Of a stretch of 64,000 nucleotides of DNA, positions 4,016 to 36,657 are shown piece by piece. The notes beneath the pieces are model-generated. The model was not told the origin of the DNA. It searched no databases and saw only the letters and a list, made by a program, of their open reading frames with translations. This DNA comes from a virus (taxonomy: Duplodnaviria; Heunggongvirae; Uroviricota; Caudoviricetes). The stretch is taken from positions 11,067 to 75,066 of IMG/VR virus record IMGVR_UViG_3300042888_001115. One strand, given 5' to 3'. Within the stretch, counting starts at the first letter, position 1; the number at the start of each line of letters is the position of its first letter. The position numbers were made by a program, and so were the translations under genes.

Positions 4016-4873
4016 TTATAATAATTTGTTATTTTTATATAAATATTTGTTATTTAAAAATGTAACTATACCCTCCGCCCATAGTTGGTGGGCTTGAAAT
4101 CCAGGGTGTCCATCATTTATTATATCAACCCCAATTTCATCAAATATTCTTGTTTTAGTTTTTTCACTTAATGTAACAATATTATTTTCAAATTGACCAT
4201 TAATTTCTAATTTTAAAATTCTATTATTAAGAAAATTTGGAATAAATTTATTAAAATCAATTTGGTTAATAAAATAAGTGTAATTACCCGATATGTAATA
4301 TTCTATATTGTGTAATTTAAAAAATGAACATAATCCTAAATATTTTTTAGCAGTTTCTAACTCCCATTGAATTGGATTTATAAAACTATTAGAATATTGT
4401 TTAATTATAGAATCTATATTATCTTTATACACTATATTTGTCATAAACCCATCTGTAATCCAATTGAACGTAGTTGCTACACTATCTACTTTACCATTAT
4501 TATCATAATTAACATTTGCTACCAAATATTTATTATACTTGTTTGAAAATATATCTAATCTATTTATCGCGTCAGGTAATTCTAATATGAATAGGGTTTT
4601 TTTAACTTCATCTAGTGTATTTTTTAGAATGTAATCATATACTTTTCTAATAATTCTATCCGTACCACTACCACTCTTTGCATCGTTTATTATTTTAATC
4701 CCCATTTGTTTTCCAACCAACGTAGGATAACATACATCTACTTGAGATTCATACTCAAACCCATATTGTTTTTTATATGCTTCTCTAACGTGTTCTTTCT
4801 TTGCTTCAAATCCACCACCTTCGGTAAACGAGCAACCATTAAAATATATTTGATTAAATTTATTTTGTATCAT
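4016..4873 (-). CDS. SGNH/GDSL-fold hydrolase paralogue (1 of 5)
   Basis: Block I FNGCSFTEGGG near the N-terminus, SGSGTDR, and C-terminal DGHPGFQAH (DxxH). Paralogous to ORFs at 30219, 33296, 34077 and 35850. Confidence 0.5.
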   Translation of the reverse strand: MIQNKFNQIYFNGCSFTEGGGFEAKKEHVREAYKKQYGFEYESQVDVCYPTLVGKQMGIKIINDAKSGSGTDRIIRKVYDYILKNTLDEVKKTLFILELPDAINRLDIFSNKYNKYLVANVNYDNNGKVDSVATTFNWITDGFMTNIVYKDNIDSIIKQYSNSFINPIQWELETAKKYLGLCSFFKLHNIEYYISGNYTYFINQIDFNKFIPNFLNNRILKLEINGQFENNIVTLSEKTKTRIFDEIGVDIINDGHPGFQAHQLWAEGIVTFLNNKYLYKNNKLL

Positions 4874-4925: not shown

Positions 4926-5306
4926 TTATCCAACTTTAATGGATACTTTTTTTGGTTTCTTTTCTTCTATCTTAGGTAAAGAGATATGTAATATACCATC
5001 TTTTACCGTTGCTAATGTAGCACTAAGGTCCCAATTAGTTCCAATGTTTAATGATTCATCAACCGGAAGTGCAATCGCATTCCAAATTTTATCATCGGTT
5101 TCTTTTTCTATTGATTTAACTTTAATAAAGCTTTCCTCAATTGTAATTTCTAATGTTTCCTTTGTTTGACCAGGAACTGCTAATCCAATTCGTAAGATAT
5201 CTTCGGTTATATCAACTACTACTTGTTTGTGGGTTGATGTAGCTGTTTTTGTTTTTGGTGTTTCGAAAAAATCTTCAAATAATTTGTTGTAATCTACTAA
5301 ATACAT
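4926..5306 (-). CDS. small heat-shock protein, Hsp20/alpha-crystallin family
   Basis: Alpha-crystallin domain pattern, GILHISLPK, C-terminal I-x-I/V tail (VSIKVG), 126 aa. Confidence 0.7.
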   Translation of the reverse strand: MYLVDYNKLFEDFFETPKTKTATSTHKQVVVDITEDILRIGLAVPGQTKETLEITIEESFIKVKSIEKETDDKIWNAIALPVDESLNIGTNWDLSATLATVKDGILHISLPKIEEKKPKKVSIKVG

Positions 5307-5381
5307 AATTTAATGTTTTTTTTGTTAATAATATTCTATATAGTTCAAATACTATACCATTGGGTTTAATCTGACAATTTG

Positions 5382-6056
5382 TTAGAATTTACCAACATTA
5401 AATGAAAATTTGTCATCTTTTACCGACTGTCTTTCAATTACCGTACTCATATGGTCTGCCCAATGCATAATATACTGAATATTTGATTTAAGATATTTTG
5501 ATGTATCATATACTTTATAATATTTTTCATTGTCCTCATCGTATAGACCATCCGTAAGTTTTATACCAAAATATTCATTCTCATTGATTGCAATACCATA
5601 TTGTGATAATGTAAATAATGTTCTATCAGTTATTGCCATAAAAGAGTTTTTTTCATTTCTTTTGTATAACTCACCTCTATTTTCAATATGCCATTTAGAA
5701 TCATTTGGTGCATAATGTAGTTCTTCTTTAGTACCCAATTTACCCAAATCATGATGTATTGCAACAAATAGTAATTCTTCTTCGGTGAAATCACATACTC
5801 CACCCGCTTCTTCAAATGTTTTTTTCATTTTTAATGCGTTCTTACATACATTAAAGATATGGTCAATATACCCACCCTCATATGCATTGTGATAGTTTTT
5901 ATTACCACTTGCAGGTGATACCATTAAGTTTCCACCTAATTCATCATCCGAGTACATAAACAAAAGTTTTTCTAATCTTTCGCCTGTAAAATATTTGTTA
6001 ACGATGGCTAGAAACTTATCGTAGTTCTGCTTTAATTCTGATTCTGTCTTTTTCAT
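5382..6056 (-). CDS. HD-domain phosphohydrolase
   Basis: VAIHHDLGKLGT (HD motif) with an upstream His (YIDHIF). Confidence 0.6.
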   Translation of the reverse strand: MKKTESELKQNYDKFLAIVNKYFTGERLEKLLFMYSDDELGGNLMVSPASGNKNYHNAYEGGYIDHIFNVCKNALKMKKTFEEAGGVCDFTEEELLFVAIHHDLGKLGTKEELHYAPNDSKWHIENRGELYKRNEKNSFMAITDRTLFTLSQYGIAINENEYFGIKLTDGLYDEDNEKYYKVYDTSKYLKSNIQYIMHWADHMSTVIERQSVKDDKFSFNVGKF

Positions 6057-6355
6057 TTTGTTAAATTTTCTTTTGTTAAGATTTTATATAAAAGTTCAAT
6101 TTCTTCTTCAGTTTCTAACATTGGTAAGTTATCAAATAGGGTTACCAAATATTCACCCTCATTCAAATCCATATTTTTCCACTCATCACTTGCTATTGAT
6201 ATTAACGTAGGTCTTTCACTTACATCATCATCTTCTTTTGGTAAAGGTAATATCCAATAATAAAAATCAGTTTCACCATCACTTTCTTCTATTCGTATCG
6301 CTCCCCATCTTTTAAAGGAATGGTCGGTAATCGGTGTTTGTGGCATTGTTATCAT
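6053..6355 (-). CDS. hypothetical acidic protein
   Basis: 100-aa ORF overlapping the upstream stop. Confidence 0.45.
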   Translation of the reverse strand: MITMPQTPITDHSFKRWGAIRIEESDGETDFYYWILPLPKEDDDVSERPTLISIASDEWKNMDLNEGEYLVTLFDNLPMLETEEEIELLYKILTKENLTK

Positions 6356-6379
6356 AACTCAAATATACAACTTTTTTTC

Positions 6380-6988
6380 CTAATCACAAATAATTCTAAT
6401 GGATTTTTGAATTGAATCTAGTTTAGAATTTGAAAATAAATTACTATTTGGGGTTTCAATTGTATATTTTGCTTTGCCTATAATTGTAATTGTATCACCT
6501 TTCATTTTATATATTGGTGCACCCATAGTATTTATTTCACCGGAAAAATATCCTAATTGTGATGTACTATTTACAATAGGAATTATTTGGTCTTGCTGTG
6601 AAACTAAAGAAGGTAGTTGTGATATTTGTAATTGACCTGTATATGGATTAAAATACGTTTTAACCACTCTACCAATCGTATCGCCGGCTTTTAATATCCA
6701 ATAGTGAGAACTACTCCATTCTATTCTACCATTAACCGGAGAAGGTGTTTTATTTGGTTTGCCATCTACTAAGAATTTACCGGTGATTCTACTTAACGTT
6801 TGGTTTGTTAGAGTAGATAACGATAAATGATAAAATCCATTATTATCCAATGGTAAACTTTGCTTACCATTTGAACTTAATGCAGAATCAATTGTAAATG
6901 TAATTGTGTGAGTTTGTGGTATTGGTGTAACTATATCTTTATTACACGCCATTAAAGCCATAATACCTAAAAAGGGTAAAATCTTCAT
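6380..6988 (-). CDS. lipoprotein
   Basis: Signal peptide MKILPFLGIMALMAC with lipobox Cys; preceded by a promoter motif 22 nt upstream. Confidence 0.5.
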   Translation of the reverse strand: MKILPFLGIMALMACNKDIVTPIPQTHTITFTIDSALSSNGKQSLPLDNNGFYHLSLSTLTNQTLSRITGKFLVDGKPNKTPSPVNGRIEWSSSHYWILKAGDTIGRVVKTYFNPYTGQLQISQLPSLVSQQDQIIPIVNSTSQLGYFSGEINTMGAPIYKMKGDTITIIGKAKYTIETPNSNLFSNSKLDSIQKSIRIICD

Positions 6989-7012
6989 ATCTTAGAGTTT
7001 AGTGTTTATACT

Positions 7013-7023
7013 TAAAGATACGA
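7013..7023 (-). promoter_or_regulatory. promoter -7-like motif GTCGTATCTTTAAGTATA
   Basis: Consensus motif about 22 nt upstream of the lipoprotein ATG; TTG about 20 nt further upstream. Confidence 0.4.
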
Positions 7024-7070
7024 CTTTTTTGTGGTTTTTCCAATTATTTGAGAGTATTTGGTATAAACAA

Positions 7071-7081
7071 TTGATTATCAA
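7071..7081 (-). promoter_or_regulatory. palindromic TTGATTATCAA site (weak copy of the upstream 20-mer)
   Basis: TTGATTATCAATTACTTA about 48 nt upstream of the promoter motif. Confidence 0.3.
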
Positions 7082-7085
7082 TTAC

Positions 7086-7523
7086 TTATAATTGTTCAAA
7101 TCCTAATTTTGTGAATACGTTTATTGACCGTATGTTCCAATCATCTATATTGGTTAATATGTTCGTATTGGTATAATTTTGTATAACATAAAATAACATA
7201 TCCGTTGCTCCATACATTCTACTATAATTTGTAGTTTTTATAAATACATTGTAAATATAATAAGTTGTAGAATCTATACATTTTAACCAACAATATCCAA
7301 CAATTTCACCTTTATAATAAGATACAAACATTTTATCACCCCGTTCAATCCTATCTTCTGCAGCTTGGAGATTAAACATACCATCCCAATTTATTTCAGA
7401 GTTGAATAAATCAATACAATATTGAATAATAGTATCATCTGATATTTCTACTATCTTAAAATCCGAATGAATATTACGTTGTATTAAATCTTCATATTTT
7501 AATTTATATTCTATCATACTCAA
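7086..7523 (-). CDS. GNAT-like acetyltransferase (tentative)
   Basis: About 145 aa, YYKGEIVGYCWL and C-terminal FTKLGFEQL resembling GNAT motifs A and B. Confidence 0.4.
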   Translation of the reverse strand: MSMIEYKLKYEDLIQRNIHSDFKIVEISDDTIIQYCIDLFNSEINWDGMFNLQAAEDRIERGDKMFVSYYKGEIVGYCWLKCIDSTTYYIYNVFIKTTNYSRMYGATDMLFYVIQNYTNTNILTNIDDWNIRSINVFTKLGFEQL

Positions 7524-7565
7524 CTCCTAAATAATTAAAATTTTTCGGATTTAATTTAAAATCAA

Positions 7566-8075
7566 TCATATTAATCGTTTATCTATATGTGTGTGTCGTA
7601 ATCTTTCTGGTGAATTTACATCAAATATATCTTCATAATATGTTATATCAATTTTTAATATTTTACTAAGTTCTAATAACTTAGTATAATAGTTATTCAC
7701 CATTTCTTGTACTTCCGTATAGTTTGGTGTTGGTTCCCAAATATATTGCATCCCGCCATTTAAATGAGTACGTTCTCTGTTATATCTTAAGTATGCAATA
7801 CTTTCTGCACAAGATTTCAAATCCCTCCTACCTAGTAGCACTACTTTGTCAAACCTGCCGGCTAAGTCAACCCACCATTTCATTTCATCGGTTATCCCGG
7901 TAGGTATATGCCACATTATAATCTTAACTATGGTATTATCATCCTTGTCATTTGGTAAATAATCACTACCATTTTTAGTTGGTTCGGATACCCATTTTAA
8001 ATTATGTTCGGCTGCTAATTTTAGCAGTAAAGAACTAGTACCGGTTCTAGCCATTGCAATTATTACTATTTTCAT
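7566..8075 (-). CDS. sulfotransferase-like P-loop protein
   Basis: N-terminal AMARTGTSSL (5'-PSB-like) and LLGRRDLKSCAES (3'-PB-like R..S). Confidence 0.45.
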   Translation of the reverse strand: MKIVIIAMARTGTSSLLLKLAAEHNLKWVSEPTKNGSDYLPNDKDDNTIVKIIMWHIPTGITDEMKWWVDLAGRFDKVVLLGRRDLKSCAESIAYLRYNRERTHLNGGMQYIWEPTPNYTEVQEMVNNYYTKLLELSKILKIDITYYEDIFDVNSPERLRHTHIDKRLI

Positions 8076-8578
8076 TATATTAAAGATTTTTTAAATGTCA
8101 AATTCTCAACACATAAAAATAAAATTAAAGACCACCGCTCACCTGTTTTTATTTCCATAACTTCATGTTCGGTGTGACTGTTGAAACAATAAATTTCGCC
8201 TCTTTTTTTTGATAATAATTTATGTGGCTCATATAAATAAAAATCGCCCCCGGTGTATTCTTCATTTAGATTAGTGCCAACCGCCCATATTCTGTTTTTA
8301 TTTGTATCAGAATGTCTTGTAAATTTGTCGCCAATATTAAATTTATGCAAACCTATGTGTGTGGGATAATTATTAACAATAACATTTTTATTATCCATAA
8401 TCAATTTACCAATCATTCTATCAAATATCCATTTATAATTTTGAATATTTGGTATTTGCCATCCGGTGTAGTTAACCGCACTATTATTAGGATACCCACC
8501 ATCGGTTTTTATTACCGTCAATACTTTACTTAAATTTATGATATCTAAACATTCTTTTGGTGTAAAATAATTTTCCAT
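8075..8578 (-). CDS. 2OG-Fe(II) oxygenase (prolyl-hydroxylase-like)
   Basis: HxD...H triad candidates FTRHSDTN and NSHTEHEV, then GERWSL (R-x-S). Confidence 0.55.
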   Translation of the reverse strand: MENYFTPKECLDIINLSKVLTVIKTDGGYPNNSAVNYTGWQIPNIQNYKWIFDRMIGKLIMDNKNVIVNNYPTHIGLHKFNIGDKFTRHSDTNKNRIWAVGTNLNEEYTGGDFYLYEPHKLLSKKRGEIYCFNSHTEHEVMEIKTGERWSLILFLCVENLTFKKSLI

Positions 8579-8582
8579 ATGA

Positions 8583-9182
8583 TTATATTAATGAATTTGT
8601 TTTTTTTGTAATAATATCACCCATTCTATATTTGTTTGTAGTATCTAATAACTCTTTGTAATATAACTCATTATATTCTATTTCTAATTCATTAAATAGT
8701 GGATTAAAATTTCCATAATATAAATCTTCGTAATAAAAAATTGGTAAATTATTTAGTGTTGCAAAATTAAAAAGTGTTTCATTTAAAAAACTATATCTAT
8801 CGTATGTTGTTTGGAATTCGGCATCCGTAATATTGTAAAGGTTATAGATACGTGGTGTATTATTTAAAAATGATGCCTCTTTGTGTACAAGAATTGAACT
8901 TTCAACTTGTTCTTTTTGATTTTTTCTTAAAAGGATTACTATCTTATCAAAATCATTTACCAATGTATCTAATGAGACCGGTAACGTTCTATATGCTGAT
9001 TTTACGAATATATTTCGTTTAGTAATTAAATCGGAATATTCATTTTTATTTTTATGTACGTTTTCAACCATCCATTCAAACCAAGGCTCATTGAAGCATT
9101 CATATTCAGTTTTAATTTTTTCGAAATATTTTAGTATTGAGGTCGAACCACATCTAGGAGTATATAGAAGTAAAATTTTCAT
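8583..9182 (-). CDS. sulfotransferase-like P-loop protein (paralogue)
   Basis: YTPRCGSTSIL and LLRKNQKEQVESS motifs; same architecture as 7566..8075. Confidence 0.45.
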   Translation of the reverse strand: MKILLLYTPRCGSTSILKYFEKIKTEYECFNEPWFEWMVENVHKNKNEYSDLITKRNIFVKSAYRTLPVSLDTLVNDFDKIVILLRKNQKEQVESSILVHKEASFLNNTPRIYNLYNITDAEFQTTYDRYSFLNETLFNFATLNNLPIFYYEDLYYGNFNPLFNELEIEYNELYYKELLDTTNKYRMGDIITKKTNSLI

Positions 9183-9704
9183 TTATAGTTTAACTTTAAT
9201 TCCATTAATCCACACAATTCTATATGTAGAACAATTTAAAACATTTGTCTCATGTTCATGTATTGATGCGAAAAAATAAAGACAATCACCCTCATTTATT
9301 TTATAAACTACATTATTAATAATCAAATCACCACCAGCATCTCCGGTTGAAGTTTTTATTATAAAATGTAAACTCTCGGTATCATCGTATTTTGGGTCTT
9401 TGTGTTTTATTAACTTAGAACCATTGAAAGATATTGCACATATTATACCATCTTTACCTTGTGGTACATTTTCATTTTCTGAAAAATTAAGTTTTTCTTT
9501 TATTTTTTTAAACGCATTTACAATTAAATCCGGATAATCATATTTAACATCATTTGTAAATCTGGTAGTTTTTCTATTATTTGCCGCTCTACCTATTTGA
9601 AAAATGTTAGTATTATGGTTATCTAATGCCCATTTATTTAAAATATTACATTCATCATGTGTTAATACAGATGGGATGATTTCAATTGAATTTGTATCAA
9701 TCAT
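9183..9704 (-). CDS. 2OG-Fe(II) oxygenase-like (paralogue)
   Basis: IKHKDPKYDD (HxD) and ASIHEHET, then YRIVWI; second copy of the oxygenase. Confidence 0.5.
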   Translation of the reverse strand: MIDTNSIEIIPSVLTHDECNILNKWALDNHNTNIFQIGRAANNRKTTRFTNDVKYDYPDLIVNAFKKIKEKLNFSENENVPQGKDGIICAISFNGSKLIKHKDPKYDDTESLHFIIKTSTGDAGGDLIINNVVYKINEGDCLYFFASIHEHETNVLNCSTYRIVWINGIKVKL

Positions 9705-9706
9705 AT

Positions 9707-9988
9707 TTAAAATAAAGTTTTTTCCACTTTTTGTTTTGGAAAATATAGAGTATCAACACTTTCCCATTTTTTCAATGGACAATCATTAAAATCTGCTGAA
9801 AATATTTTTTTAGTTATTGGGCAACCACATTCGTTGCATATAACACCAATATCTAATTTAGTAGTGAGTACCTTTCTAGACGGACATACTTCACATATTT
9901 CATTTCTTTTTTCTGCTAGTAGTTTTTGATTTTCAGAAGGTTTATACGCTGTAACCCATGCATTGAAAATTTTTTTAAAATTCAACAT
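9707..9988 (-). CDS. Zn-ribbon small protein
   Basis: CEVCPSRK...CNECGCP, two CxxC pairs. Confidence 0.45.
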   Translation of the reverse strand: MLNFKKIFNAWVTAYKPSENQKLLAEKRNEICEVCPSRKVLTTKLDIGVICNECGCPITKKIFSADFNDCPLKKWESVDTLYFPKQKVEKTLF

Positions 9989-10003
9989 GTTTTTAAATTT
10001 TTA

Positions 10004-10081
10004 TTAAGAATTAGAACTAACAATTAATGCACCCATTTGTGTCATTATTGTATTTATTGTTTGAGTTTGAGTTGTTGTCAT
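10004..10081 (-). CDS. candidate 25-aa peptide ORF (MTTTQTQTINTIMTQMGALIVSSNS)
   Basis: ATG-initiated ORF with double TAA stop that fills most of the 115-nt gap between the Cys-rich protein and the Zn-ribbon gene; not in the track (<60 aa). Confidence 0.2.
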   Translation of the reverse strand: MTTTQTQTINTIMTQMGALIVSSNS

Positions 10082-10103
10082 TTTTAATTAATTTTTAATA
10101 TTA

Positions 10104-11654
10104 TTAAGATTTTGGAGCTACCGGTGGTACACAGTTAGCAAAATTAACACACTTACATGGAGCGGAATTGGCGTAGCAGGGGAAGGTGCTGAACGTTTGT
10201 TTAGTACAGGCCTCACCCTTTGCGCAGTCGGATTGTGAACAAGAAGCTTTCCTCTCGGAACAACTCGCACCAATATTATGTTCAATTGCAACAAATGAGG
10301 TATTGTCCATAGTTTGTGTTAAAAATAAATGTTGTCTTTCTACACTTATTGCCCATCCACTAAATATGGTATTTGTTCTTACAATTGTCGAAACTTCTTT
10401 TAGGACAGTTGTTAATGTTTCATTTTCAGTATTAATTAATATTACAGAATCACCAATTTGTATAGATTCATCTGACCCCAAACTTCCCAATGAAACAAAT
10501 TTAACATTATTATTTCTAACGATTAAATAATTAGAAGAAATTGTATCTTCCCAATAAGTAGTATCAGTAAATACAAGCTTAACATATTCTACAATTACAG
10601 AAACCTTTTCTTTTGCAGTTACCTCATTTGTACTGTATACTGTATTATTTACAAAATCTTCATATGTTATACCAAAATCAGCTGTATCCAATGTTAAATC
10701 AATATTATTTGGATTTGGAATATCAATTGTTTTTAATAAATCACCTACTTGTAAATCCAACGCAGTTTTGAATGAACCATCTGCCATTTCAACCGTATCG
10801 GTATCTAATAATTTAGGTGCTGCGAACAAATATTCATTATTTAAATATCTATTTTTATATGTATTTACTATCTCAAATGTTTCTGCATTATATTCTACAT
10901 CAGTATCTAATACTGCTCCGGTCAACGATGTGTAACCACCTAATGATATACTTTCTAAATTTGGAGGAAATAATAAATTTAATCCTCTAAAAACTTGTAT
11001 TTGATTTTGATATAAATTGTTCAAATCTAAATGAAATTCCATCAAAAAATACTCGTTGTTAACATTTTGTAAAACAATATTTAATTCCTCATTAGTTGAT
11101 ACTTTAAACAACTTAGGGTAAATATTCTTATCATATGCCGCACCAACTGCTTTTAAAATAAAATTTGGATGAATACCATTATCTGGTATTGTAGTTATGT
11201 TGTTTACAATTTCATTTGTTTCGTTAAGATATGCAAATTGAGAACCAAATGATGAATTTTTAATTAAATTCATAAAATTAATTTTATTTGCACAATACGT
11301 ATCATCTACCAATGCGGTAGTATCATATGCACTTCTAATAATCAACGTTGTATCGTTATCTTCAACATAAGGTACTGTTATAGAATTTGGACTAGAAATC
11401 ATATTTTTAAATTCAAATCCTAAAATGGTAGATAATTCAGTTAATTTGTTAGATAGTGGCTCTAAATTTCCGATGTATACTACCTTAGTAAATGTATTAT
11501 TACTAATGAAATTAGATAGTTCTGTTAAATCTAAGGAGGTTTCAGTACCTTCTAATGTAACATATATCCAGCCTAAATTAGTGTTTATTTCAATTGGTTT
11601 TAAATCACCATTTTTATCGTACATAAAGTCCGAACCTATTAATACTGTTCTCAT
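10104..11654 (-). CDS. large protein with Hint-like segment and Cys-rich C-terminal tail
   Basis: 516 aa; TVEMADGSFKTALDLQVGDLL resembles a Hint N-terminal block and VAIEHN precedes the tail; last ~50 aa hold 11 Cys and are encoded by a locally GC-rich stretch (10104-10270). Confidence 0.55.
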   Translation of the reverse strand: MRTVLIGSDFMYDKNGDLKPIEINTNLGWIYVTLEGTETSLDLTELSNFISNNTFTKVVYIGNLEPLSNKLTELSTILGFEFKNMISSPNSITVPYVEDNDTTLIIRSAYDTTALVDDTYCANKINFMNLIKNSSFGSQFAYLNETNEIVNNITTIPDNGIHPNFILKAVGAAYDKNIYPKLFKVSTNEELNIVLQNVNNEYFLMEFHLDLNNLYQNQIQVFRGLNLLFPPNLESISLGGYTSLTGAVLDTDVEYNAETFEIVNTYKNRYLNNEYLFAAPKLLDTDTVEMADGSFKTALDLQVGDLLKTIDIPNPNNIDLTLDTADFGITYEDFVNNTVYSTNEVTAKEKVSVIVEYVKLVFTDTTYWEDTISSNYLIVRNNNVKFVSLGSLGSDESIQIGDSVILINTENETLTTVLKEVSTIVRTNTIFSGWAISVERQHLFLTQTMDNTSFVAIEHNIGASCSERKASCSQSDCAKGEACTKQTFSTFPCYANSAPCKCVNFANCVPPVAPKS

Positions 11655-11689
11655 AATTTTAGTTTTCCTTATTATTTCTTATAAATATA

Positions 11690-12082
11690 CTAACTTTGTA
11701 ATTTAGTAGTTCTTTTGGTATATTTTCTTTTTGGTTTTGGTAGCGGTGGATTATCAATAGATGTGATTAAATCCCTTATTGCACCACATTGTTCGTATTG
11801 TTCTTTAGATACAAAGTAATCCATCATTTTATTTAGAAGGTCCTTATACTCACTCTTATTGATTGTAGCAAACATTTTACTATCGGTAAACTTAATAATT
11901 GCAACTTCTTCTAAATTTTCTTCAATAGCTCCTTTTAATATTTGTAAAATCCAGGGATATAAGGTATCACCATTCATAGAAATATAGTTTGAAACAGCAG
12001 GAGATGCATCTTCATCAAAGTATTTTCTCCAATTAGTTTTTGCGTACATATCGGTAATTTTTAATAATTTGTTAATATCCAT
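11690..12082 (-). CDS. hypothetical protein
   Basis: 130-aa ORF. Confidence 0.5.
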   Translation of the reverse strand: MDINKLLKITDMYAKTNWRKYFDEDASPAVSNYISMNGDTLYPWILQILKGAIEENLEEVAIIKFTDSKMFATINKSEYKDLLNKMMDYFVSKEQYEQCGAIRDLITSIDNPPLPKPKRKYTKRTTKLQS

Positions 12083-12092
12083 ATATAACTAT

Positions 12093-12821
12093 TTAATTTG
12101 TACGAACCACATCTTTTAAATAATCATCCATACTCGTAACTCTAGTTGTTACCGGCTTTACTACATCTGTTGATGCTGGTAAATTTTCTACTATTACACT
12201 ACCATCTTTGTTTTGATAAGTTTGGATTTTTGAAATTCCCGTAACTCTTATAGTAGTATCTTCAAATAAAAATCTAATTTGATTTATAATTGCATTATCA
12301 TTTAATATAGTTGGTTCGTTATTAACGTAAAATTGATATTCTACACTTTGTACGCCTGCTTGAGTGAATCTACTGCCTATACCTGTTTTACTAACTGAAT
12401 TTACTTGCACTGCAGTTACCGAACCACTAACTGACCCGGATGGATTATCTGCGGTAATTACACTACCACTATAAGAAATAGTATTTGTTTCTATATTAGA
12501 AGAAAATTTGTTTTTATTATATGCTAATGCTTTAGATATATCTAATTGGACTGAAATTATATCTTTAATAGTATAATATGGATTGCCTTCATCATACGCT
12601 TTTTTTAATGCGGAAAATATATGAGATGGTATGTAAATTGAATTACCTACACTTATAGTAAAATTAATATTATTAGAATCAAACACTTTATAGGTAATAG
12701 TATTAGGGTCTATGGTCGGTAATTCAATAAAGTTTTTGTCAAACACACCCGTTAAAAGTGCAGTTGATTTATTCTTTATTGAATAACTACCATAATCATT
12801 TACTATTTCTCTACTAAACAT
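12093..12821 (-). CDS. hypothetical protein (possible virion protein); start trimmed to MFSREIV
   Basis: The track's N-terminal extension (to 12908) overlaps a separate basic ORF in another frame; the internal ATG directly follows that ORF's TAA. Confidence 0.5.
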   Translation of the reverse strand: MFSREIVNDYGSYSIKNKSTALLTGVFDKNFIELPTIDPNTITYKVFDSNNINFTISVGNSIYIPSHIFSALKKAYDEGNPYYTIKDIISVQLDISKALAYNKNKFSSNIETNTISYSGSVITADNPSGSVSGSVTAVQVNSVSKTGIGSRFTQAGVQSVEYQFYVNNEPTILNDNAIINQIRFLFEDTTIRVTGISKIQTYQNKDGSVIVENLPASTDVVKPVTTRVTSMDDYLKDVVRTN

Positions 12822-12822
12822 T

Positions 12823-12948
12823 TTATCTTCCTTGTCCTTTGTACGCCTTTGGACGTGGACTGTGTTTGTTATAAGATTTCTTTGCCGAACCGGATTTACG
12901 AGAACCAAATGAAACCTTTGATGATGTTAATGAACCTTTCTTTGCCAT
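12823..12948 (-). CDS. small highly basic protein (41 aa, MAKKGSLTSSKVSFGSRKSGSAKKSYNKHSPRPKAYKGQGR)
   Basis: ATG ORF not in the track; its stop abuts the ATG of the downstream gene. Confidence 0.35.
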   Translation of the reverse strand: MAKKGSLTSSKVSFGSRKSGSAKKSYNKHSPRPKAYKGQGR

Positions 12949-12990
12949 AAATTGTTACTCCTTTGTTTAGGAATAAATATATGGAAATAA

Positions 12991-13236
12991 TTAATTCGTT
13001 GTATAAGCTACTTCATCTTTAAGGTATTTCTTAAGTGTATCGAACTCCTCTGCTTTTTCTGATACTGTCATTCTCAAACTTTTAAAGATAACTTTTAAAT
13101 CATCTATTGTTTGAATTTTGTTATCCCAATCAAACTCATACCAGTTAATAGGTTGAGGGGTCGGTTGTGGTTCTTGTACCTGTGTTTCTTCAATTGGAAA
13201 CAACTCTAATTGTTCTAATTCTTTTTTCTTTGCCAT
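12991..13236 (-). CDS. hypothetical acidic protein
   Basis: 81-aa ORF. Confidence 0.45.
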   Translation of the reverse strand: MAKKKELEQLELFPIEETQVQEPQPTPQPINWYEFDWDNKIQTIDDLKVIFKSLRMTVSEKAEEFDTLKKYLKDEVAYTTN

Positions 13237-13293
13237 TTTTATTTTATTTTTGTTAATTGAATTATTGTTTACTTACTAAATCAAATTTTTAAT

Positions 13294-13671
13294 CTATACT
13301 AATTTTTTCTCTCTACTTTTCCAATACATCGGTCCATAATGATGCGCAATCTCCTCACCTTCTTCTATATCTTTAATTGAATAAAATTCCATTATATTTA
13401 ATTCTTTCGATTTTATCCTCCAATCACAATTTGGGTGTGAACTATGATTATAAATTGAACCGTACCCAAAAGGTAAGTATGAAGTATCATTATCGTTAAC
13501 GTCGGTGAATACATAATCATACGATGGGTGGGTTGCTACCACAAATAATTTTATAAAATAGCATGTTTCTATAATTGTTCCGTTTGGTATAAATTCGCCG
13601 GCAAACACACCAAATCCCATTACTTCATCAATATAACGTACCTCTAATTTTGTTTGTGGTTTTATAACCAT
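13294..13671 (-). CDS. SET-domain protein lysine methyltransferase (minimal viral-type SET)
   Basis: GFGVFA (GxG), IYNHSSHPNC (NHSCxPN), EEIAHHYG (ELxFDY-like); 125 aa, like the minimal viral and bacterial SETs. Confidence 0.8.
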   Translation of the reverse strand: MVIKPQTKLEVRYIDEVMGFGVFAGEFIPNGTIIETCYFIKLFVVATHPSYDYVFTDVNDNDTSYLPFGYGSIYNHSSHPNCDWRIKSKELNIMEFYSIKDIEEGEEIAHHYGPMYWKSREKKLV

Positions 13672-13940
13672 TTTATTTTATTAATGATTGTATTAAATTC
13701 TTGTCTTTCTATCTTATCTGCGTTATACATTTCAAATTCATCCTTATCCTTATCGTTTCTTAAACAAATGATATGATATTCATTATTCATATCCGATTTG
13801 TATATTACATCTTTAACATATCCAAATTCAGCATCATCCATTGAAGCTCTAAACCTCATTACGAATATTGGTTTAGGTTTATGGACGATATTTGGATTCA
13901 CACTCATTGGTGGCGGGATTGGTATTGAATTTCCGAACAT
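13662..13940 (-). CDS. hypothetical protein
   Basis: 92-aa ORF overlapping the SET gene start. Confidence 0.45.
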   Translation of the reverse strand: MFGNSIPIPPPMSVNPNIVHKPKPIFVMRFRASMDDAEFGYVKDVIYKSDMNNEYHIICLRNDKDKDEFEMYNADKIERQEFNTIINKIKWL

Positions 13941-13946
13941 AGGATT

Positions 13947-13971
13947 GAGAGAGGGGGTTGGGGGGTGAGAG
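13947..13971 (+). repeat. G-rich island GAGAGAGGGGGTTGGGGGGTGAGAG (copy of the GGGGGTTG element, opposite orientation)
   Basis: Runs of 5-6 G in an otherwise AT-rich region; followed by GTCGTTTTTAAAC as in the copies at 24386 and 26557. Confidence 0.4.
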
Positions 13972-14012
13972 TAGTCGTTTTTAAACTTTTTAGTAAATCT
14001 TTTTTGTATATA

Positions 14013-35121: not shown

Positions 35122-35853
35122 TTACAATGTAACTACACCACGTTTTTGTACAACTTTTGTTGCACAATCATTTGCGTATTCAATACTAACTTCTATACTT
35201 TTTGTTTTTAAATAACTAATTACTAATGAAGCCATAAAGGTATCACCTGCACCACTCAAATCTCTAACCTCAATATCGTTGTTAACCGGATATGTAATAC
35301 CATCATACATTGCACCTCGTTCACTCATTGTTATAATTAATCTTTCTCGCCACATTTCGTATTCCTGTCCTTTACAATTTTCCCACTCAACTTCATTTAT
35401 CTTAATGAATGTATAATTACGCATTTCTGCTGATAATGGTTTCTTTGTATCTATAAAAGTTAATGGATGTGAATCACTAATCAATTTCAAATCTGATAAT
35501 GATAGAAATCCTTTGTCATAATCACTTACAATAACTGCATCATAATCATTGAATGGAACTCTTTTAACATCAAATGAATTGCTAACCTTATCATTACTGT
35601 CAATTCTGATAATCATATGATTTGCTTTTTCCTCTACATATCTAGTCTTTGTAATTTGTTCTTTGTTAGTAACCAACTCAACTTTCTCAGCTCCCAACGA
35701 TTTAAGATTAGCTACTACATTACCACTCATACCCATATTGGTAATTGTTCTACTCGGTTCAAATATTGGCACAGGTCCTTCGGGACATAATCTTTTACAA
35801 TAACCATATACAAATACATCAGTACAACTATCACCGATAACTAAAACTTTCAT
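35122..35853 (-). CDS. pfkB-family sugar kinase, HldE/RfaE domain-I-like (heptose-7-phosphate kinase-like)
   Basis: MKVLVIGDSCTDVFVYG, PEGPVPI, GGNVVANL, YDAVIVSDYDKG, DLSGAGDTFMASL; collinear with the HldE kinase domain. Confidence 0.6.
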   Translation of the reverse strand: MKVLVIGDSCTDVFVYGYCKRLCPEGPVPIFEPSRTITNMGMSGNVVANLKSLGAEKVELVTNKEQITKTRYVEEKANHMIIRIDSNDKVSNSFDVKRVPFNDYDAVIVSDYDKGFLSLSDLKLISDSHPLTFIDTKKPLSAEMRNYTFIKINEVEWENCKGQEYEMWRERLIITMSERGAMYDGITYPVNNDIEVRDLSGAGDTFMASLVISYLKTKSIEVSIEYANDCATKVVQKRGVVTL

Positions 35854-36515
35854 AATAACGATTTCCTATAAGTATTAATATATTCAAAAAAATGATTAGC
35901 CATTCGTTGATGTCCTAACTCATTAAAATGTTTATCAATATTACCATTCGGTTCTATAATATGTTGTTCCTCTAATTGGTCTTGCCACTTTGTATAAAAC
36001 GAATAGTTTGTAAATTCGTTTGTTGAATTGGGTGCCGGAATAAAGTTTATAATTTCTTTATATTTTTTAAAATCTGAATGGGTTTGTCCTTCCGCACTCC
36101 AATAGTAAATTGGTATTTTATTTTTAATGCACCAATCATTTACCTGTTTCTTAAACCATTTGTAATTAACATTTCGCATTTCTATTAAATTATCTGCAAA
36201 TGTTCCATGATGTTTTATAAAGTATGCCTCCAAATCTATTAATTGTGCTTTTGTTGGATAAATATTATACCTATCAAAAAATGTAAATTCAAATACAACC
36301 TTATCACCTGGTTGAATTTCATCTCGCCTATCTATGAATTGCAATATAGATACCCAATTACATTGTCCAGGATGTGCACTATTTACTAATTCTAAATCTA
36401 ATTTATCCGCTAATACATACGGCCAACTAATTCTTAATTTATCTTCATCCAGTGGGTCAACTAAATTCATTCCAGTTGAAAATGAACATCCAAATACCCA
36501 AAGTTTATTTTTCAT
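35850..36515 (-). CDS. SGNH/GDSL-fold hydrolase paralogue (5 of 5; start trimmed to MKNKLWVF)
   Basis: LWVFGCSFSTG, AHPGQCN, DKHFNELGHQ. Confidence 0.5.
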   Translation of the reverse strand: MKNKLWVFGCSFSTGMNLVDPLDEDKLRISWPYVLADKLDLELVNSAHPGQCNWVSILQFIDRRDEIQPGDKVVFEFTFFDRYNIYPTKAQLIDLEAYFIKHHGTFADNLIEMRNVNYKWFKKQVNDWCIKNKIPIYYWSAEGQTHSDFKKYKEIINFIPAPNSTNEFTNYSFYTKWQDQLEEQHIIEPNGNIDKHFNELGHQRMANHFFEYINTYRKSLL

Positions 36516-36519
36516 TATC

Positions 36520-36657
36520 ATTCCAATTTAAAAAATCTTCACCTTTGTAATCGGGATGATTTTCTTTCATATAGTCAATACCTCTTACCCAAAAAAATGA
36601 AACGATTGCAGCCATTATAAAGCTGCAACCGATTCCTATTACATAACTCATTATCAT
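36520..36657 (-). CDS. small TM peptide (MIMSYVIGIGCSFIMAAIVSFFWVRGIDYMKENHPDYKGEDFLNWNDNEK)
   Basis: About 45-aa ORF not in the track; its stop overlaps the downstream ATG. Confidence 0.3.

Follow-up and report, generated by a model that had tools for sequence, protein, structure and literature searches.

An ATP-grasp-like/Hint protein with a hypervariable cysteine-rich tail heads a phage module of C-terminally tagged oxygenases and sulfotransferases

INTRODUCTION

What do oxygenases and sulfotransferases act on when a phage encodes several of them side by side, and does anything hold such a set of enzymes together? The question is raised by a 64,000-nt stretch of the IMG/VR record IMGVR_UViG_3300042888_001115 (record positions 11,067–75,066; called the window throughout), and within it by the gene cluster at positions 7086–11654. 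Its source is a large uncultured myovirus from freshwater metagenomes, which hold identical copies of the region. An earlier note, made from the sequence without database searches, had read the cluster as a post-translational modification system made up of a duplicated oxygenase–sulfotransferase gene pair, a peptide-sized open reading frame (ORF), a zinc (Zn) ribbon gene and a protein with a cysteine-rich end. Here we report that the cluster belongs to a real, widespread and undescribed phage module in which known folds stand in a new arrangement. Its conserved core is a triad of a 516-amino-acid (aa) protein with a hypervariable tail, a micro-protein of 25 aa and a Zn ribbon, and most of the cassette proteins that follow share a short C-terminal tag across unrelated folds. 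Counts for relatives refer to 62 non-redundant loci of the 516-aa family unless another sample is given.

RESULTS

Gene layout of the module

All the ORFs of the earlier note are present, in the order it gave, on the minus strand. In the direction of transcription they encode proteins of 516 aa (10104–11654), 25 aa (10004–10081), 93 aa (9707–9988), 173 aa (9183–9704), 199 aa (8583–9182), 167 aa (8075–8578), 169 aa (7566–8075) and 145 aa (7086–7523). Intergenic gaps from the 516-aa gene through the 169-aa gene measure −1 to 22 nt, no terminator-like sites were found between these two genes, and the region is one operon-like module.

The 516-aa protein combines ATP-grasp-like and Hint domains

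At the head of the module stands a protein in which an ATP-grasp-like ligase domain is followed by an autoprocessing domain of the Hint type, and this by a hypervariable tail. Residues 1–270 (10845–11654, minus strand) match by fold a circularly permuted ATP-grasp-like (acid–amine ligase-like) domain, which appears to be of the permuted type of glutathionylspermidine synthetase (GspS) and YgiC and not of the RimK/LysX type. Residues ~278–460 (10275–10823, minus strand) match the Hint (hedgehog/intein) fold and end in E458-H459-N460, three residues that are invariant among 36 sequences of the family and of which the HN pair is retained even in members less than 30% identical. A Foldseek comparison with BFVD matched the Hint part alone, at a template modelling (TM) score of ~0.25, and returned no full-length analogue. 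Precomputed Pfam domains are absent from every listed member of the family, and one distant member gave a weak match to Pfam PT-HINT (E 3.4e-4).

The fold is that of inteins, and intein block F can be aligned to the family; hhalign against the Npu DnaE intein aligned block F only, at low probability. The domain begins with an invariant P280-K281-L282 and has no conserved Cys, Ser or Thr at its start, while the +1 residue after Asn460 varies (V, Y, A, G, S, F, I and others). As both the N-terminal and the +1 nucleophile are missing, the Hint domain cannot splice, and for want of these two defining features we rejected the 516-aa protein as an intein. What the domain keeps are residues that would serve C-terminal cleavage by asparagine cyclisation. 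A polymorphic toxin was rejected as well: the N-terminus is ATP-grasp-like, neither a trafficking domain nor a signal peptide was found in the protein, and the downstream genes are conserved rather than co-varying.

In distant members the HN pair is followed either by long BACON-domain regions of up to 1667 aa (for example L093:10001–13699, L094:8299–10353 and the proteins P0291, P0298, P0302 and P0314) or by just 6–9 residues. Two genes for radical S-adenosylmethionine (SAM)/SPASM proteins lie upstream in L094, and one tail-less distant member (L095:1234–2439) stands behind genes for a flavin-dependent tryptophan halogenase and a Zeta_toxin/AAA_33-type kinase.

The cysteine-rich tail is a fast-evolving module

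The tail, to which the earlier note had assigned 11 Cys, actually holds 8 Cys; it comprises the 56 residues that follow Asn460 (residues 461–516; 10107–10274, minus strand). Comparison of 61 non-redundant relatives bears out that it is a distinct and fast-evolving module directly behind the Hint domain, its identity being 0.51 where that of the ATP-grasp domain is 0.87. Across tail lengths of 23–62 aa the number of Cys is even in 61 of 61 cases (8 in 37 loci, 6 in 21, 10 in two and 4 in one), and the first Cys lies 2–6 residues beyond the +1 position. Every one of these tails contains C-x-K or C-x-x-K, with a strict C-x-K in 55, and 44 have a single Lys. Gly, Pro, Ser and Tyr are enriched, Pro making up 10% and Tyr 7%. 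Pfam, run on nine tails and on the micro-protein, matched no Cys-rich family. A ferredoxin-like or Zn-binding tail was considered and dropped, given the variants with 6 and 10 Cys and a spacing that does not fit ferredoxin motifs; the tail may nonetheless bind metal. Apart from the tail and the Zn ribbon, nothing encoded in the 64-kb window is Cys-dense. Two different genes of the family occur ~38 kb apart in the 211-kb record IMGVR_UViG_3300042892_005961 (L019 and L074), and their tails differ, one having 8 Cys and the other being of a 6-Cys CDKMYE type.

The anomalous GC content that had drawn attention to this part of the gene is real, with 0.44 in the 200 nt from 10100 to 10299 against a background of ~0.27, and 0.48 in the tail coding region against 0.27 in the remainder of the 516-aa gene. 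Among the 61 relatives GC at codon positions 1 and 2 is 0.52 in the tail versus 0.35 in the body, and at third positions (GC3) 0.23 versus 0.18, so that the excess is mostly due to amino-acid composition; in the window GC3 is also raised (0.41 in the tail versus 0.15 in the body). An Rfam scan of 5000–14000 gave no match, and the GC-rich stretch is therefore not a known RNA. On the opposite strand a 114-aa ORF (10186–10530, plus strand) faces the tail; it is Cys-rich through reverse-complement symmetry and in all likelihood non-coding.

The micro-protein and the Zn ribbon complete a conserved triad

The 25-aa ORF (MTTTQTQTINTIMTQMGALIVSSNS), which the earlier note had listed as peptide-sized, proved to be a genuine conserved gene, found in 57 of the 62 loci. 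In these it starts 13–39 nt past the stop codon of the 516-family gene and follows the pattern ...IN..MTQIGSLI(V/I)..NS-stop. There are 51 distinct peptides, with a ratio of non-synonymous to synonymous polymorphism (pN/pS) of 0.26–0.50, and the C-terminal Asn-Ser is kept in nearly all of them (L009 has ANT). We take the core, IGSLI, to be loosely like the GSL core of encapsulin cargo-loading peptides. The micro-ORF is missing from the stored gene calls of loci L004–L010. In distant long-tail relatives a homologue (MIDRTEIKRIMQTIAGDIVQLALSQKEEES) lies directly upstream instead, with acidic residues added at its C-terminus (...KEEES, ...NSEEESE), and the Zn-ribbon gene keeps its downstream place.

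That 93-aa Zn-ribbon gene occurs in 59 of the 62 loci and in most cases is the first downstream gene to be called. Invariant in its product are C32, C35, C51, C54, G55, C56, P57, C70, K74 and W75, six of them Cys. The protein matches phrog_13558 (1.4e-7), for which no function is annotated, and its Pfam zinc-finger matches are weak. The linkage of the micro-protein and the Zn ribbon to the protein with ATP-grasp-like domain, Hint domain and tail identifies the triad as the conserved core of the module.

Oxygenases, sulfotransferases and an acetyltransferase follow the triad

Both genes called 2-oxoglutarate (2OG)-Fe(II) oxygenases in the earlier note retain that assignment, by different routes. 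The 167-aa protein matches Pfam 2OG-FeII_Oxy_3 (PF13640; 1.5e-9, 39.2 bits against a cut-off of 27), which we take to be a prolyl-hydroxylase-like branch, and H89-x-D91, H138 and R148, the iron triad and the 2OG-binding Arg, are invariant in its family alignment. The 173-aa protein has no Pfam match and 10 close homologues only, and is recognised by profile–profile comparison and the H-x-D...H...R pattern only: hhalign against the local oxygenase family places its H101-x-D103, H151 and R162 on these family residues, which makes it a probable divergent 2OG-Fe(II) oxygenase.

The two sulfotransferase calls hold by motifs and fold. In the 199-aa protein we found the sulfotransferase alpha/beta fold, with the trehalose sulfotransferase Stf0 as the closest structural match, together with the motifs PRxGS(T/S) and R-x7-S for binding of 3′-phosphoadenosine-5′-phosphosulfate (PAPS) and a YYEDL; R10, G12, R86 and S95 do not vary among 37 homologues (YTPRxGSTS, L.R....Q..S). 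Its 169-aa paralogue has MARTGTSS, GRRDLKSCAES and YYEDI and falls into the same BLAST cluster, which comprises 42 genes in 36 of the 62 loci. Both are putative PAPS-type sulfotransferases, sulfate transfer from PAPS being suggested by the gene context. No curated hidden Markov model (HMM) matches the two proteins or their 113 homologues (for the window pair, models of Pfam, NCBIfam and PHROG). Sequence searches of the PDB in this analysis, with single proteins and with profiles, returned chance-level matches only. The 145-aa GNAT protein passes narrowly in Pfam Acetyltransf_1 (1.9e-4; 22.1 bits against a cut-off of 20.7) and matches the acetyltransferase family phrog_3810 (8e-6); it would measure 143 aa from the ATG at 7517, and homologues occur in 10 loci only. 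HMM searches thus recover the 167-aa oxygenase and the GNAT protein, and Pfam misses both sulfotransferases and the 173-aa oxygenase.

The proposed tandem duplication of a two-gene unit did not survive comparison. BLASTP finds no significant similarity between the two oxygenases (E 0.87), which are related at profile level only (hhalign 92%, E 5e-7), and the two sulfotransferase-like proteins are 24% identical over 164 aa (BLASTP E 3e-6). Nor do the two enzyme types form a recurring unit elsewhere, as oxygenase and sulfotransferase genes are adjacent 60 times in the 62 loci against 59.8 ± 5.0 expected by chance.

Cassette proteins of unrelated folds share a C-terminal tag

What the cassette proteins do have in common is their last residues, with the consensus K-(K/N)-(T/S)-L-(I/L). 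Counted as a C-terminal L-[ILFV], the tag is carried by 31 of 31 radical SAM proteins, 47 of 51 Sulfotransfer_2-like proteins, 33 of 42 window-type sulfotransferases and 84 of 114 oxygenases. It is found on none of the adenosine-5′-phosphosulfate (APS) kinases (0/30) and carbamoyltransferases (0/29), on no nucleotidyltransferase, DUF2061, HSP20, GNAT or sheath protein, and on a single one of 17 HD proteins. The strict pattern covers 24 of 61 Zn ribbons, several others ending in TII or TFI. With the looser pattern that we used for comparing the two sides of the 516-family gene, 85–90% of downstream genes 1–5 are tagged versus 17% of upstream genes. Codon use within the tag equals genome-wide use apart from a mild excess of ATA, and the stop codons vary; this argues for selection at the protein level and rules out that the tag is a DNA-level signal.

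Tagged proteins of the window are the Zn ribbon (...EKTLF), the 199-aa (...TNSLI) and 169-aa (...DKRLI) sulfotransferases, the 167-aa oxygenase (...KKSLI), a SET protein, a 285-aa protein and a 223-aa protein (35850–36521); the GNAT protein is untagged. The SET-domain protein, encoded upstream (125 aa; 13294–13671, minus strand; ending ...KKLV), to which Pfam SET is assigned in precomputed gene tables, is a possible accessory member of the module; homologues lie inside the downstream cassette in L008, L009, L013 and L029 and likewise end in a hydrophobic dipeptide. For the 285-aa protein (4016–4873, minus strand; ending ...NKLL), which has no convincing Pfam match, a BLASTP match to the SGNH-like protein L004:13188–13847 (E 4.6e-5) gives a weak hint that it might be another.

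The codons of one tag coincide with a promoter-like sequence. At 8074–8101 (minus strand) lies a perfect sigma-70 consensus, TTGACA-16-TATAAT, the sole 12/12 match in 5.3 kb, which overlaps the end codons of the 167-aa oxygenase gene and the start of the 169-aa gene and of which the tag codons form part. Sigma-70 promoters were discarded as a feature of the region, the scan having returned 49 sites against 42 ± 6.6 expected, which is no excess over chance.

Distribution of the family and cassettes of its relatives

The 516-aa family is phage-only and large, with more than 754 clusters at 90% identity and 355 representatives at 50%. Its phage contigs reach 336 kb and carry tail sheath and baseplate genes; judged by the sheath protein, Flavobacterium phage immuto comes nearest among cultured phages (46% identity). 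DNA and protein searches with the 516-, 167- and 199-aa proteins gave no match in 50,697 GenBank phage records. A scan of 185,579 species genomes found one 2-kb contig, in a metagenome-assembled genome, and such a single stray contig provides neither a host clue nor cellular homologues.

Which genes stand behind the triad differs even in close relatives. In L091, whose 516-aa protein is 74% identical, the cassette is a different one and includes a protein of Pfam Sulfotransfer_2 (PF03567); a cassette gene of L008 has a faint match to PF00685. Oxygenases of the main BLAST cluster are the most widespread cassette members (114 genes in 52 of the 62 loci), next to 229-aa Sulfotransfer_2-like proteins (45 loci), SGNH-like proteins (35) and radical SAM proteins (29). 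Protein-modifier families in the relatives' cassettes are SET, Asp_Arg_Hydrox and radical SAM/SPASM, the last adjoining a Cys-rich member. On the upstream side we found a 128-aa HxGH nucleotidyltransferase in 34 loci, DUF2061 in 33, APS kinase in 30 and carbamoyltransferase in 29.

Three of these upstream genes, for the APS kinase, the 128-aa HxGH nucleotidyltransferase and the membrane protein DUF2061, form a trio that directly precedes the 516-family gene in roughly half the relatives (L004:8964–9962, L009:8280–9311, L010:8940–9971 and L090:5770–6774). From its gene content the trio looks like a phage-encoded PAPS supply, in which the nucleotidyltransferase is possibly a minimal ATP sulfurylase.

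Other features of the window

Four minus-strand accessory genes downstream of the module are untagged: one for a probable lipoprotein with a signal peptide and an LMAC lipobox (6380–6988), one for a 224-aa protein that reads as HD-domain-like and has no significant family match (5382–6056), one for HSP20 (4926–5306) and one for a NifU_N Fe–S scaffold protein (2307–2708). On the far side, a 41-aa strongly basic, Lys/Ser-rich ORF (12823–12948, minus strand; MAKKGSLTSSKVSFGSRKSG...) overlaps the TTG-start version of a 271-aa ORF; the relatives' stored gene calls give the basic ORF separately, followed by a 242-aa product. Gene starts in 5000–14000 have A/T-rich leaders and no Shine–Dalgarno sequences, which, taken with a Flavobacterium phage as the nearest cultured relative and the BACON domains of relatives, points to a probable host among the Bacteroidota.

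DISCUSSION

Taken at face value, the gene set resembles a protein- or peptide-tailoring system, and this part of the earlier proposal is plausible and borne out in part; the duplicated unit on which it also leaned is not. As to the substrate, which we infer, our tentative preference is for a RiPP-like system (RiPP, ribosomally synthesised and post-translationally modified peptide) that hydroxylates and sulfates the Cys-rich tail, which the Hint domain then releases; we put this at somewhat short of an even chance. What speaks for it is that the genes are co-located, that cassette proteins share the tag, that protein-modifier families and PAPS-supply genes occur in the loci, and that the tail behaves like a cargo. 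The tailoring enzymes would dock on the conserved core through their C-terminal K-x-S/T-L-I tag, hydroxylate the tail at Pro, Lys or Asp, and O-sulfate it at Tyr, Ser, Thr or the newly made hydroxyls. His459-Asn460 of the Hint domain would then cut behind Asn460 by asparagine cyclisation, freeing a 56-residue peptide that would fold into a disulfide knot outside the cell. The ATP-grasp domain would make one ATP-dependent amide ligation, at the invariant tail Lys or at the new N-terminus. Such a fast-evolving product would probably be a virion-surface or released ligand in host interaction.

A weak positive correlation between the number of tail Pro and the number of oxygenase genes fits maturation of the tail (rho 0.45, p 0.0012, n = 48), although it takes no account of phylogeny and is only just significant once 30 tests are corrected for. 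Several other observations also weigh against this preference. The tail is predicted at a local distance difference test score (pLDDT) below 50, and because the 516-aa protein has no signal peptide, disulfides could form only after lysis. An APS kinase homologue was not detected in the window by BLASTP. Tail-less members keep the HN pair, so the purpose of cleavage may not be to release a cargo. In L093 the 516-family gene directly precedes the tail sheath gene, and the triad adjoins it without an oxygenase/sulfotransferase cassette; the cassette is thus an add-on and not an obligate partner. Finally, enzymes of these classes also tailor sugars, and relatives have sugar genes close by.

That last point leads to the strongest rival, in which the region is a glycan tailoring island whose enzymes, in relatives also carbamoyltransferase, SGNH-like proteins and methyltransferase, decorate a virion or host-surface glycan; the 516-aa protein would then come from an adjoining structural or ligase gene or serve as the carrier of the glycan. 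We consider this unlikely, though worth keeping in view. Within a few kb relatives have a dTDP-sugar isomerase, NAD-dependent epimerases/dehydratases, a DegT aminotransferase, a thiamine pyrophosphate enzyme, a NodU/CmcH-type carbamoyltransferase, UDP-glucose dehydrogenase and glycosyltransferases, genes for an epimerase and a methyltransferase lie in the window too, at 743–2307, the closest structural match of the sulfotransferase is one for trehalose, and weak SGNH/GDSL-like matches are frequent in the cassette. These sugar genes, however, lie upstream or farther off and are untagged, as the counts for carbamoyltransferase and APS kinase illustrate, whereas the tagged set contains the typical protein modifiers SET, Asp_Arg_Hydrox and radical SAM. 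The 2OG-FeII_Oxy_3 family, taken as the prolyl-hydroxylase-like branch, also speaks against a glycan target, and there is no glycosyltransferase among the examined genes of the 5–14 kb region.

Two further readings give the triad itself another role, and we hold both to be improbable. The 25-aa micro-protein might be the substrate or scaffold, its ...A-N-S end being extended or ligated by the ATP-grasp domain and the appendage tailored by the enzymes, by a logic analogous to that of pearlins, pyrroloquinoline quinone (PQQ) or mycofactocin. The micro-protein is indeed more conserved than the tail, is adjacent in 57 of the 62 loci with its Asn-Ser end kept, and has a homologue that persists in distant long-tail members; the ATP-grasp relatives GspS and tubulin tyrosine ligase (TTL), to which the fold match connects, are generally known to act on peptide C-termini, and radical SAM genes are frequent. 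Yet the acidic extension in distant members means that the -NS end is not universal, a constant peptide leaves both the variable enzyme set and the co-varying tail unexplained, and no gene for a releasing peptidase was identified. Alternatively, and with no greater probability, the triad would be a tag-specified, ATP-driven device for protein trans-ligation that covalently joins tagged proteins to a cargo. The Hint cut at Asn460 would expose the amino terminus of the Cys-knot tail or BACON adhesin, the GspS-type ATP-grasp domain would activate the C-terminal carboxylate of proteins ending in K-x-S/T-L-I, namely the Zn ribbon and the cassette enzymes, and the activated carboxylate would be joined to the new amine or the invariant tail Lys. 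The products would be covalently assembled, heavily modified and hypervariable virion-surface or released molecules.

That there is no common system at all we rate as the least probable reading: a hyperplastic accessory region of a T4-like phage, in which oxygenases, sulfotransferases and GNAT protein each have separate host or phage targets. T4-like cyanophages commonly carry 2OG-Fe(II) oxygenase arrays of unknown role, the genes that stand from the Zn ribbon to the next conserved ones are not the same even in a relative as close as L091, and the two enzyme types adjoin each other at chance level. Against this, a tag that is restricted to the cassette and sits on unrelated folds would be difficult to account for unless there were a shared partner or destination, the position of the cassette behind the triad is fixed in most loci, and PAPS-supply genes adjoin the sulfotransferases in about half of them.

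How does tail maturation by a tagged cassette compare with known systems? Closest in architecture are bacterial intein-like (BIL) domains and PT-HINT toxins, in which a Hint fold likewise stands directly before a hypervariable C-terminal module and the C-terminal His-Asn is kept, so that autoproteolytic release is the chemistry to be expected. The phage module differs in being encoded by phages only, in having neither an N-terminal secretion or trafficking domain nor repeats and an ATP-grasp-like N-terminal partner instead, and in a variable module that is a Cys framework of 23–62 residues or BACON repeats and no recognisable toxin; the adjacent small gene, conserved and not co-varying, is unlike an immunity gene. 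RiPP clusters with NHLP/Nif11-type leaders and graspetides resemble it in a conserved N-terminal part, a variable C-terminal core and adjoining tailoring enzymes, and also in the ATP-grasp and radical SAM enzymes of the locus family. The phage 'leader', however, spans 460 residues in two domains and probably brings its own protease and ligase, and the C-terminal tag is borne by the enzymes, whereas in known RiPPs the leader of the precursor is read by RiPP recognition element (RRE) domains. No RRE, known RiPP class-defining enzyme or conserved graspetide pattern of Asp/Glu with Ser/Thr/Lys was identified in the module, which belongs to no known RiPP class.

Other likenesses concern single components. 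RaxX/RaxST of Xanthomonas with RaxPQ likewise pairs a small PAPS-type sulfotransferase having a PRSG(S/T)T-type loop with an adjoining ribosomal peptide, and the APS kinase and ATP-sulfurylase-type genes near the relatives' loci recall RaxPQ; the phage loci differ in combining several sulfotransferases with oxygenases and in a candidate substrate fused to enzyme domains, and no sequence similarity was detected. Cysteine-knot conotoxins, in which Pro hydroxylation and Tyr sulfation are classical modifications, have a conserved Cys framework with hypervariable loops, as the Pro- and Tyr-rich phage tails do; this is an analogy and not a homology, from another cellular setting, and the modifications of the phage tail are conjectural. 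LysW/LysX is a precedent for an ATP-grasp enzyme genetically coupled to a small Zn-ribbon protein with a conserved C-terminus, but the phage ribbon ends in K-x-T-L-(I/F) instead of an acidic EDWGE-type sequence, its ATP-grasp partner is of GspS/YgiC and not RimK/LysX type, and amino-acid biosynthesis genes are missing from the phage module. Short C-terminal motifs on unrelated enzymes are also familiar from encapsulin cargo-loading peptides and class I PDZ ligands (S/T-x-hydrophobic-COOH); K-(K/N)-(T/S)-L-(I/L) fits neither exactly, and no receptor domain was identified. We found no published description of the module, the family or the tag in databases and in the literature, of which our coverage was incomplete.

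The scale of the gap is given by more than 750 unannotated clusters that are absent from all cultured GenBank phages, and the conserved 25-residue gene overlooked in the relatives' stored calls exposes a gap in gene calling as well. Self-cleaving scaffolds, docking tags and minimal sulfotransferases (169–199 residues) could be drawn from the family. Should maturation of the tail be the right reading, it would offer a candidate target for at least part of the 2OG-Fe(II) oxygenase arrays that abound, unexplained, in large aquatic phages; phages would make their own decorated cysteine-knot peptides, and a precursor with built-in protease and ligase, served by enzymes that are recruited through a tag of their own, would be a new design principle of maturation.

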